Shown here in pieces: positions 3,613-62,273 of a stretch of 64,000 nt of DNA. The DNA comes from Candidatus Saccharimonadota bacterium. GTDB taxonomy: Bacteria; Patescibacteriota; Saccharimonadia; Saccharimonadales; Saccharimonadaceae. The translations under genes and the position numbers were made by a program. The DNA lies in contig JAFRAS010000007.1 in assembly GCA_017405265.1 (NCBI GenBank), positions 3,524 to 67,523 on the forward strand, read 5' to 3'. The notes beneath the pieces are model-generated. The model was given only the letters and a program-made list of their open reading frames with translations. It was not told where the DNA came from and did no database searches. How positions within the stretch are numbered: the first letter of the stretch is position 1; the number at the start of each line of letters is the position of its first letter.

Positions 3613-3641
3613 TTGATTTTGTCTCCTTAATGATATATAAT
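3613..3641 (+). promoter_or_regulatory. Sigma70 promoter
   Basis: TTGATT-17bp-TATAAT. Confidence 0.7.
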
Positions 3642-3646
3642 TAAAC

Positions 3647-3776
3647 TGTTCTGAATTTCAAATCTGTAAACGGGTCCGCCACTAATATGATTAGTTGCCC
3701 AAGGATTATGCCCCATGTGGAGCACTCGCTCCAGTAGGCATAAACCGCCCGTCTGCAGAAAATGAAGTTCAGAACA
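3647..3776 (+). ncRNA. Candidate structured RNA/leader upstream of nuclease gene
   Basis: 3647-3660 pairs with 3763-3776 and 3663-3674 with 3748-3759, enclosing two hairpins; G-U wobbles on the + strand. Confidence 0.6.
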
Positions 3777-3832
3777 CTCCATAGCGAGCGTTCCACTTGG
3801 TTTATGGGGCTATAAAATTAAGGAGGGATCCT

Positions 3833-5155
3833 ATGACCAACTGGGAAAAATTATGCGAGCTAATCACTAATGATAAAACTTTTGGTAAGGCGAAACGACG
3901 ATACGGTGGAGACGGAAAAGGGGAGAAAGAGAGAAGGTTCGAGGATCACTTCGCAGAATATTTATTTACGGTTTTCGATTGGGCATCGTCAGAGATTAAG
4001 CGACAGGCGAGTCTACCGGTCGGCAGCAATAATAGAGCTATTCTGGACATTATGCTCGTAAAGGATGAGGAACAACCGTTTATATTCGAATTAAAGAACT
4101 ATACAGTTTTTCCGGATAGTGCCGGGTATGCCGAGATACAATCGCAAATTAAACTGGCAAATACAAATTTCGGTATTTTTACCAATGGAATTACTTTGCA
4201 CTTATTGTATCGCACAAGTTTCGACAAAGACCCAGAAGAAATTTTTTGCGTATCATATCTGGACAGAACAAATGAGGAGGCGATTGAGCTATGTAATCTA
4301 CTAGATGGAAAATCATATTCTACGAAAAACTTGGTGGCTTTTTGCGAAAAGCTCAAGAAGGCAATTAAGACCGAGTATGAAAATAATCCAAGGCTATTTA
4401 TGATCTCGAGCCAGATGAACAAAGAGCGCGACGAGAAGATTCAACGGATGATAGCAAAATATATTAAATGGATAAATGACAATCCGAAAGAGTATGAGGC
4501 AGCTTTCTCATTTAAGAAAGAACGAAAATGGATACGCGATAATATCTTCGATACCGAGAAGTTGCGCACATTGCCGGATGACGAATATTCGCAGCTAATG
4601 CACGAAATCCCAAAACACACATTAGCAATTAATGGATATGCAATGATGATGTTGTATGGAGAAAAAAATGGGAAACCATTACCAGAAATGGGCATTATTG
4701 GAGACCGAAAGAAATTTATCAAATGCATAGAATATCTTAATTCAATCCCGAGAAAAGATGCGCGAGAGGCTTTAAAAAACTTTACGACTAATGGTTCGGA
4801 ATATAAGATATTGGGAGTTGGCAAGATGTTTTGGTCGGAGATGATCAGGTGCAAATTCGATAATATCCCATTGCAGAATAATAAGACGAACAAGTTTTTT
4901 AGAGCAATTGGCATCGAGTTGGGTTTTTCGCCAGAGCAAAAGAGCCAAAGCATAGTTTACTGCTACAATAGGTGGCTCTCCGAATGGAACAAAGACAAAA
5001 ATCATCTGCAGCTCGATTCTTCGGTTCTTAGCCACATGGAACATTTTGCTCTCGCGAGTGAGGAGGGCGAAAAATATCTAAGCCAAGAATTTGGTTATAC
5101 GCCGGAGGGCGAATCCGGCGACCAATCAAAATCATGGATACCGAAAAATCCATAA
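3833..5155 (+). CDS. Restriction-like nuclease: HsdR N-terminal-type PD-(D/E)xK domain plus unknown C-terminal domain
   Basis: LDIMLV...FIFELK, FGIFTNG; SD AAGGAGG before ATG 3833; AT-rich, atypical codon usage. Confidence 0.75.
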   Translation: MTNWEKLCELITNDKTFGKAKRRYGGDGKGEKERRFEDHFAEYLFTVFDWASSEIKRQASLPVGSNNRAILDIMLVKDEEQPFIFELKNYTVFPDSAGYAEIQSQIKLANTNFGIFTNGITLHLLYRTSFDKDPEEIFCVSYLDRTNEEAIELCNLLDGKSYSTKNLVAFCEKLKKAIKTEYENNPRLFMISSQMNKERDEKIQRMIAKYIKWINDNPKEYEAAFSFKKERKWIRDNIFDTEKLRTLPDDEYSQLMHEIPKHTLAINGYAMMMLYGEKNGKPLPEMGIIGDRKKFIKCIEYLNSIPRKDAREALKNFTTNGSEYKILGVGKMFWSEMIRCKFDNIPLQNNKTNKFFRAIGIELGFSPEQKSQSIVYCYNRWLSEWNKDKNHLQLDSSVLSHMEHFALASEEGEKYLSQEFGYTPEGESGDQSKSWIPKNP

Positions 5156-5429
5156 ATTAATCTCTTGATGTGATAAAATATAAGCGAACCCACTGCGCGG
5201 CGAGCATTCACCTACCGCAAAGGGTTCCCTTTTTATGTCAATATCGCTTTTCTGAAGAGGTACGAAAAACTACTTTTTATCTCTCAAAGAAGTCGCACTC
5301 GGGAAGTTTTTCAAAGCGCAAAGCATTTACTATTTCGAACAGTGTAAATTTTTTGCCTATTTCAATTTTTTCGCGGGACAGGTCAGGTATAGAAGCGCAG
5401 AGAAAACTGCTTTTCGCAGCATGAGCAGG

Positions 5430-5600
5430 GGGAAGCTCCTAAACTCTTTTCTTTACGGTATTCCGATTTGTTTTATGTAAAAAATACAGCAGACGCTACG
5501 TTTCAAAATTACGCAGTTTAAAAATTTTGAAACTAGCCCGGATGCTGTATTTTTTACAATAAAACAAGTCGCGTAAAGAAAAGAGCTTTAGGAACTTCCC
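5430..5600. repeat. 171-bp imperfect palindrome with family A-like ends
   Basis: GGGAAGCTCCTAAACTCTTTTCTTTACG...CGTAAAGAAAAGAGCTTTAGGAACTTCCC. Confidence 0.85.

Positions 5601-60834: not shown

Positions 60835-62273
<1,439 letters not shown>

Follow-up and report, generated by a model that had tools for sequence, protein, structure and literature searches.

The guanidine-IV (PMC11611296), ZTP/pfl (10.1101/521930) and fluoride (PMC11077080) riboswitches are transcriptional ON switches in which a pseudoknot or a kissing loop is set against a terminator. Here we describe an RNA leader of related layout, located upstream from the gene of a probable anti-phage nuclease in a 64,000-nt stretch of contig JAFRAS010000007.1 (the window) from a Candidatus Saccharimonadota genome (assembly GCA_017405265.1; 519 kb, 86% complete), whose relatives by their names point to Saccharibacteria of the Candidatus Nanosyncoccaceae type. 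As in these riboswitches, a 5' leader starts from a promoter, a long-range loop pairing excludes an intrinsic terminator and strand displacement would decide the outcome. Unlike in them, the long-range helix has 11 to 18 bp, takes up both the loop and the 3' strand of the terminator and is free to vary in sequence; few unpaired bases of the leader are invariant, and the downstream (cargo) genes belong to no common pathway.

The phage P4 CI RNA (seqA/B/C), the P1 C4 RNA and the repBA/repZ pseudoknot are antisense-controlled leaders of mobile elements. The present leader resembles them in that one segment has several alternative partners within the same leader and in that it precedes accessory or toxic genes of mobile DNA, and differs in that the pairing occurs in cis. 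It matched neither group in Rfam 15: over positions 3640-3830 no match was found at E≤10 to riboswitches, C4, 6S, SRP, lysM-TM7 or other families, and 16 further member loci gave no match at E≤1 except tRNAs. Retron msr-msd RNAs and the AbiF and type III antitoxin RNAs are end-to-end paired RNAs upstream from a defence gene. The leader shares this arrangement and differs from them: it lacks a reverse transcriptase (RT) and repeats, has not co-evolved with the protein and precedes many unrelated cargo genes.

The leader is a real regulatory RNA family absent from the catalogues, a variant of the terminator-based leader switches. An earlier note on this DNA had described a 130-nt RNA made of a 14-bp and a 12-bp stem enclosing two hairpins. 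The minimum free energy (MFE) fold of positions 3647-3776 (-60 kcal/mol) contains these elements, with the 12-bp stem divided into 6+6 bp, is identical to the centroid and was not reached by any of 200 shuffled sequences (z -9.64). Over 3642-3836 the + strand folded better than the - strand (z -6.7 vs -4.6), and each of the three non-Watson-Crick pairs in the long stems reads U-G on the + strand, in agreement with the remark that mismatches were mostly G-U on this strand. The length of 130 nt holds for this fold but not for the element, which continues to about 3809; the overlooked part includes the switch. The additional hairpin reported before the Shine-Dalgarno sequence (SD) was recovered as P5. 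The features of the window copy are the following:

3613-3641 (+): sigma-70-type promoter, with the -35 box at 3613-3618, a 17-nt spacer and the -10 box at 3636-3641 (10 of 12 consensus positions)

3647-3660 (+): 5' strand of P1, paired over 14 bp with 3763-3776; closes the domain, so that the 5' end is hidden; double changes at 8 of 14 pairs

3663-3675 with 3747-3759 (+): P2, at a three-way junction; double changes at 7 of 9 pairs

3678-3698 (+): P3, variable hairpin at the three-way junction; not alignable

3703-3712 with 3737-3746 (+): stem of P4, at the three-way junction; double changes at 9 of 9 pairs

3713-3730 (+): segment a, in the P4 loop; forms a long pseudoknot helix with segment b

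3718-3733 (+): P4a, small local hairpin of the near subfamily only

3772-3779 with 3786-3793 (+): T, hairpin of the intrinsic-terminator type; the end of P1 supplies its 5' strand and segment b its 3' strand

3783-3800 (+): segment b, the switch strand; partners are a (pseudoknot), the P1 3' strand (terminator) and segment c

3797-3805 (+): U-rich tract after b, with 5 U in 8 here and canonical U runs in distant members

3777-3809 (+): P5, alternative hairpin of the b region with segment c (3802-3809); would form only after read-through; no U follows

3820-3827 (+): SD; by calculation not gated by the leader in the window copy

3833-5155 (+): END-like nuclease open reading frame (ORF), ATG at 3833, 440 aa, with HSDR_N_2 and HhH-GPD-like (helix-hairpin-helix) domains

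Invariant bases of the family lie mostly in P1, T and b; in addition, a CAG-like motif on the 3' side of the P4 loop and an A-rich internal loop recur.

More than 100 loci of this leader family were found in Saccharimonadales. DNA searching identified a 75%-identical leader in the same genus, before an unrelated gene of 236 aa. A scan of 185,000 genomes with a pattern that included both strands of T gave 75 true copies, almost all of them under the label Saccharibacteria. With covariance models the leader was found in 39 of 100 genomes of the genus (at most six matches per genome); of 150 genomes of the family 12 had distant members, and of 150 genomes of the order 14 had matches, spread over no fewer than 13 other families. 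A sample of 150 genomes from the phylum as a whole gave a single weak, unchecked match outside the order. The window genome contains one close copy and one very distant copy (L185; G000:C6:8072-8246, +), which precedes an ORF cut by the contig end; by eye this ORF resembles the start of an adenine methylase, and it gave no Pfam match. On viral contigs four patterns produced chance matches only, and no match was found in GenBank phages. A tRNA is located nearby at 34 of 83 loci, compared with a background of 29%, the count being inflated by near-identical loci. Literature searches, incomplete in coverage, found no description of the family.

The covariation check proposed in the earlier note was run on the homologous leaders. 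P1, P2 and P4 covary strongly in 43 non-redundant copies, well above shuffled and slid controls, which leave the relatedness of the sequences in place. The leader is always in the sense orientation, 5' of a gene, and the start codon is mostly 35-90 nt beyond P1. The position of P1 relative to the promoter is also constant: the distance from the -10 box to P1 is 5-6 nt in nearly all members, and neither search had used the -10 box. In the window the -10 box ends 5 nt before the P1 fold and the predicted transcription start, 3647-3648, coincides with the first base of the stem, as had been noted. The number of promoter-like sites across the region (five, 4.9 being expected by chance) showed no excess.

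The three pairings of segment b are mutually exclusive. The a:b helix averages 17 bp, was stronger than all 100 shuffles in 56 of 59 members and shows double changes at 7 of its 15 pairs. It was present in all 43 matches of a model lacking those pairs, about 30 of them outside the training set, and was found as well in L144, a copy of unrelated sequence. Hairpin T was found in 82 of the 84 members tested, with 99% of cells paired; one covarying pair is specific to it (columns 142:154), and a four-way change joins P1, T and the pseudoknot (columns 4, 137, 159 and 80). Distant members carry T as a textbook intrinsic terminator. In 57 of 59 members the core of b is followed by at least five U among eight nucleotides, as is P5 in just 3 of 59; P5 was rejected as the terminator, since the U tract does not follow it. 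Two other candidates were discarded: P4a as a universal switch partner, for it shows no double changes and is missing from distant members, and a tRNA-like 3' CCA after P1, which is not conserved. With the pseudoknot excluded, the energy gap between T and intact P1 averaged +1.6 kcal/mol in near and +0.8 kcal/mol in far members. The two structures are thus nearly equal in energy and the pseudoknot is able to tip the balance between them.

These data make it fairly probable that the leader is a cis-acting transcription attenuator, in which P1 together with the pseudoknot would give read-through and T a 150-nt RNA. The unit would be a portable promoter plus leader, transcribed from the first base of P1. 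The nascent RNA is expected to fold P1, P2, P3 and P4, displaying segment a in the P4 loop. In the off state the emerging segment b would invade the base of P1 and form T before the U-rich tract, so that transcription would stop after about 150 nt. In the on state segment a would capture b as the pseudoknot and P1 would hold the other terminator strand, allowing read-through, after which b may pair with c. Folding kinetics, or a trans-acting RNA or protein blocking segment a, would be the most likely trigger, a small ligand being less likely; Pfam and PHROG scans of the cargo revealed no shared pathway that could point to a ligand. In this way the leader would limit or time the level of the END-like nuclease.

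Several observations weigh against attenuation by T. In the window copy, C3789, which is U in most relatives, creates an A-C mismatch in T, which is weakened from -10.0 to -6.1 kcal/mol (a:b from -25 to -21 kcal/mol); this weakened terminator is probably leaky. In the near subfamily, window copy included, the U tract is imperfect and lies 3 nt beyond T. Since the strands of T were part of the search pattern, the presence of T in the near set is partly the result of selection. The pseudoknot runs into the U tract, where pairs are possible only past the decision point, and an 18-bp helix in a 23-nt loop could presumably not form fully with P4 closed. Finally, a search of the genome for an antisense partner of segment a found none that was convincing.

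A rival reading, with a small but real probability, is that the a:b helix itself is the terminator stem or clamps the released 3' end, T being a backup. The default product would then be a compact, stable 150-nt RNA, possibly with its own job, and the leader mainly a fixed damper. The a:b helix does end at the U-rich tract and continues inside it through pairs that covary (columns 73:166, 19 double changes), much as the A-tract extends ordinary terminators; in the window copy T is by far the weaker of the two (-6 kcal/mol vs -21 kcal/mol for a:b), and the 5' end of the RNA is paired from base one. Pairing to nascent RNA beside a U tract can release polymerase. On this reading, however, the local hairpin T, retained with covariation of its own, would be superfluous, a bulky pseudoknot would probably suit the exit channel poorly, and the nearly constant position of the element 5' to a gene would not be expected.

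Control after transcription appears slightly less probable still. In this scheme the full-length mRNA is kept in store, a locking b and c covering the SD, until cleavage of the leader or a trans-acting RNA frees b and the SD opens. The same logic is used by type I toxin mRNAs, the repBA pseudoknot and the phage P4 CI and P1 C4 RNAs. Coverage of the SD by segment c exceeded that by its shuffled versions in 16 of 73 members against an expectation of 3.7 (p 4e-7), including 11 of 28 distant members, the b:c hairpin is common, and the SD was more often open with the real b than with shuffled b (35 vs 9). The effect is nevertheless not general: freed b opens the SD in 22 members and closes it in 17 (p 0.23), so that gating of the SD by b as a rule was not supported. 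In the window copy c has no effect on the SD (1.5 vs 1.3 kcal/mol), and T with its U tract is left unexplained. Under attenuation by T, the covering of the SD by c, unless c is otherwise paired, may constitute a second layer of control in about one fifth of the members, the window copy lacking it.

The genes behind the leader are varied: the 131 downstream proteins fall into 65 unrelated clusters, among them small membrane or surface proteins, superinfection-exclusion lipoproteins, a Dcm methylase, a second HsdR_N protein, an epimerase, a NUDIX protein and many unknowns; Pfam and PHROG scans gave unrelated single matches (Dcm, epimerase, YbjQ, Ltp/Sie, DUF4352, NUDIX, Fic) and no RT. The nearest relative of the window leader, 90% identical, heads an unrelated gene, and in the tree the window leader is sister (100/100) to the leader of an unrelated 450-aa gene. 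Near-identical leaders with the same upstream DNA precede different cargo in three sets of loci (L017/L075; L029/L043/L036; L002/L024), the identity stopping at about segment c; the L003 and L063 groups also share upstream DNA and leader and differ in the first gene. In L075 a new gene lies between the leader and the gene that directly follows the leader in L017. The leader thus seems to head small variable gene arrays.

Such exchange of cargo behind a constant leader, and the several copies per genome, could suggest an element acting as DNA, either a dispersed palindrome, a possibility named in the earlier note, or a recombination anchor. We regard this as very improbable. The G-U pairs and one-sided changes favour a sense RNA, and covariance model scores are strongly strand-biased (85-165 bits sense, at most 32 bits antisense). 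The spacing from the -10 box is fixed, no tandem leaders occur within 8 kb, and the leader is unrelated to the palindromes of the genome, of which the one at 5430-5600 is indeed a repeat. The exchange of cargo may be a by-product of the conserved leader.

Least credible of all is a non-coding RNA dedicated to the nuclease, as antitoxin, guide or retron-like partner: end-to-end pairing and the presence of the leader at 6 of the 11 nuclease homologues whose upstream region was available, with protein identities as low as 32%, speak for it, but the 65 cargo clusters, the rejection of the nuclease leaders as a clade (approximately unbiased (AU) test, p 0.008), the other five homologues, one of them 69% identical, having no leader, the lack of an RT nearby and an END-type sensor that accounts for self-tolerance all speak against it. 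The kinship with retron or Abi RNAs suggested in the earlier note is likewise not supported. From its proposal of an RNA-regulated defence nuclease, the probable defence nuclease and the probable control by RNA are kept; the dedication of the RNA to the nuclease is not. The structure is conserved among homologues in the sense that the nuclease is often found behind the leader, which it does not require. The 69%-identical nuclease (L010) starts about 30 nt past the 3' end of a tRNA (1-77), as if inserted at the tRNA site without a leader.

The nuclease itself carries a PD-(D/E)xK domain of the HsdR-N type, as noted before (HSDR_N_2 at residues 38-124, E 1e-7, Pfam), with D72, E86 and K88 conserved. 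Residues ~190-425 gave a confident structural model (predicted local distance difference test score, pLDDT, 92). In a wide structural search this C-terminal domain matched best to OGG 3n0u (Z 8.2, root-mean-square deviation 4.3, 166 residues aligned), followed by DrEndoIII (Z 7.1); these Z scores are moderate, and most of the top rows were HhH glycosylases. By motif reading alone, a Met replaces the Lys after the HhH turn (G328 region) and the invariant Asn349 replaces the Asp of bifunctional enzymes; the usual catalytic residues thus appear replaced, and the HhH-GPD domain may be inactive. Neither PADLOC and PHROGs nor searches of PDB by sequence and with Foldseek gave a significant match for the nuclease. 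The HhH-like domain, which has no Pfam model, also occurs without a nuclease and, N-terminally, on a McrB-like GTPase with an EVE domain (P0149); other proteins with this domain are P0044, P0054, P0109 and P0131.

END nucleases restrict hypermodified phage DNA without a methylase and include a PD-DExK form and a McrB fusion (PMC12191111). END-Mag (PD-DExK-iEndoIII; Yee et al. 2025, PMC12191111) is a single gene with no methylase, joining PD-(D/E)xK to a C-terminal EndoIII/OGG-like domain that lacks catalytic residues; in the sections consulted no leader RNA is described for these enzymes. The window protein shares this architecture, and its C-terminal domain is likewise found on a McrB-like GTPase. 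It differs in that its nuclease domain is of the HsdR_N type by Pfam, that of END-Mag being NucS-like. The likeness is one of architecture and fold. On this modelled basis the protein is probably an END-like, modification-dependent anti-phage nuclease. A modified-base sensor of the END type would explain the lack of a methylase, and no RNA antidote would be needed.

The neighbours of the nuclease (XRE-HTH, DsbA, pseudouridine-synthase-like and other genes) include no methylase, helicase or RT, as previously stated. The unit is flanked by the XRE-HTH/DsbA gene pair on one side and by a dispersed palindrome on the other. Its G+C content is 37-42%, compared with about 50% in the flanks, and in relatives that retain the DsbA gene different genes occupy this position; the unit is therefore accessory DNA. 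Directly after the nuclease stop codon, at 5168-5235 (+), a -10-like box, a 55-nt hairpin and five U were observed, which may represent either the terminator of the nuclease gene or a small RNA with its own transcription; no homologue of this element was found among the leader-family loci compared. The palindromes at 5430-5600 and ~1780-1950 are long and AT-rich and belong to a dispersed repeat family with many genome copies, several at contig ends. ARAGORN called a tRNA-SeC at ~61313-61405 (-) of the window (G000:C3:64836-64928), near an in-gene palindrome; the tRNA call may be false.

About 12 otherwise unrelated cargo proteins have a polar tail and a short N-terminal motif, W-x-x-(M/L)-(A/S)-(E/D)-E-x-P-x-F (L027, L044, L048, L049, L051, L054, L055, L066, L070, L073, L024/L076/L084 and L202). 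The motif could be a secretion signal, for example for a type IV secretion system.

Few regulators are known in Saccharibacteria, which are tiny bacteria of the gut, and this leader family offers a handle on the control of accessory and defence genes in these epibionts. A covarying, uncatalogued leader is present in about 40% of the genomes of the genus and in 13 or more other families of the order, with a layout that differs from the described riboswitches in that the closing stem clamps one terminator strand and a long pseudoknot the other. The idea of an RNA-partnered nuclease falls; the cargo would widen END-type restriction of modified DNA to include Patescibacteria and hints that there are phages whose DNA is modified. 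It is conceivable, at long odds, that these leaders form a new class of RNA switches responding to a signal, placing scattered defence, surface and possibly secreted genes under one cue and arming the END nuclease on demand; phage attack, contact with the host or a small molecule of unknown identity bound where P4 meets the pseudoknot would be candidate cues. If true, this would be the first regulon-level RNA sensor of the Saccharibacteria epibionts.
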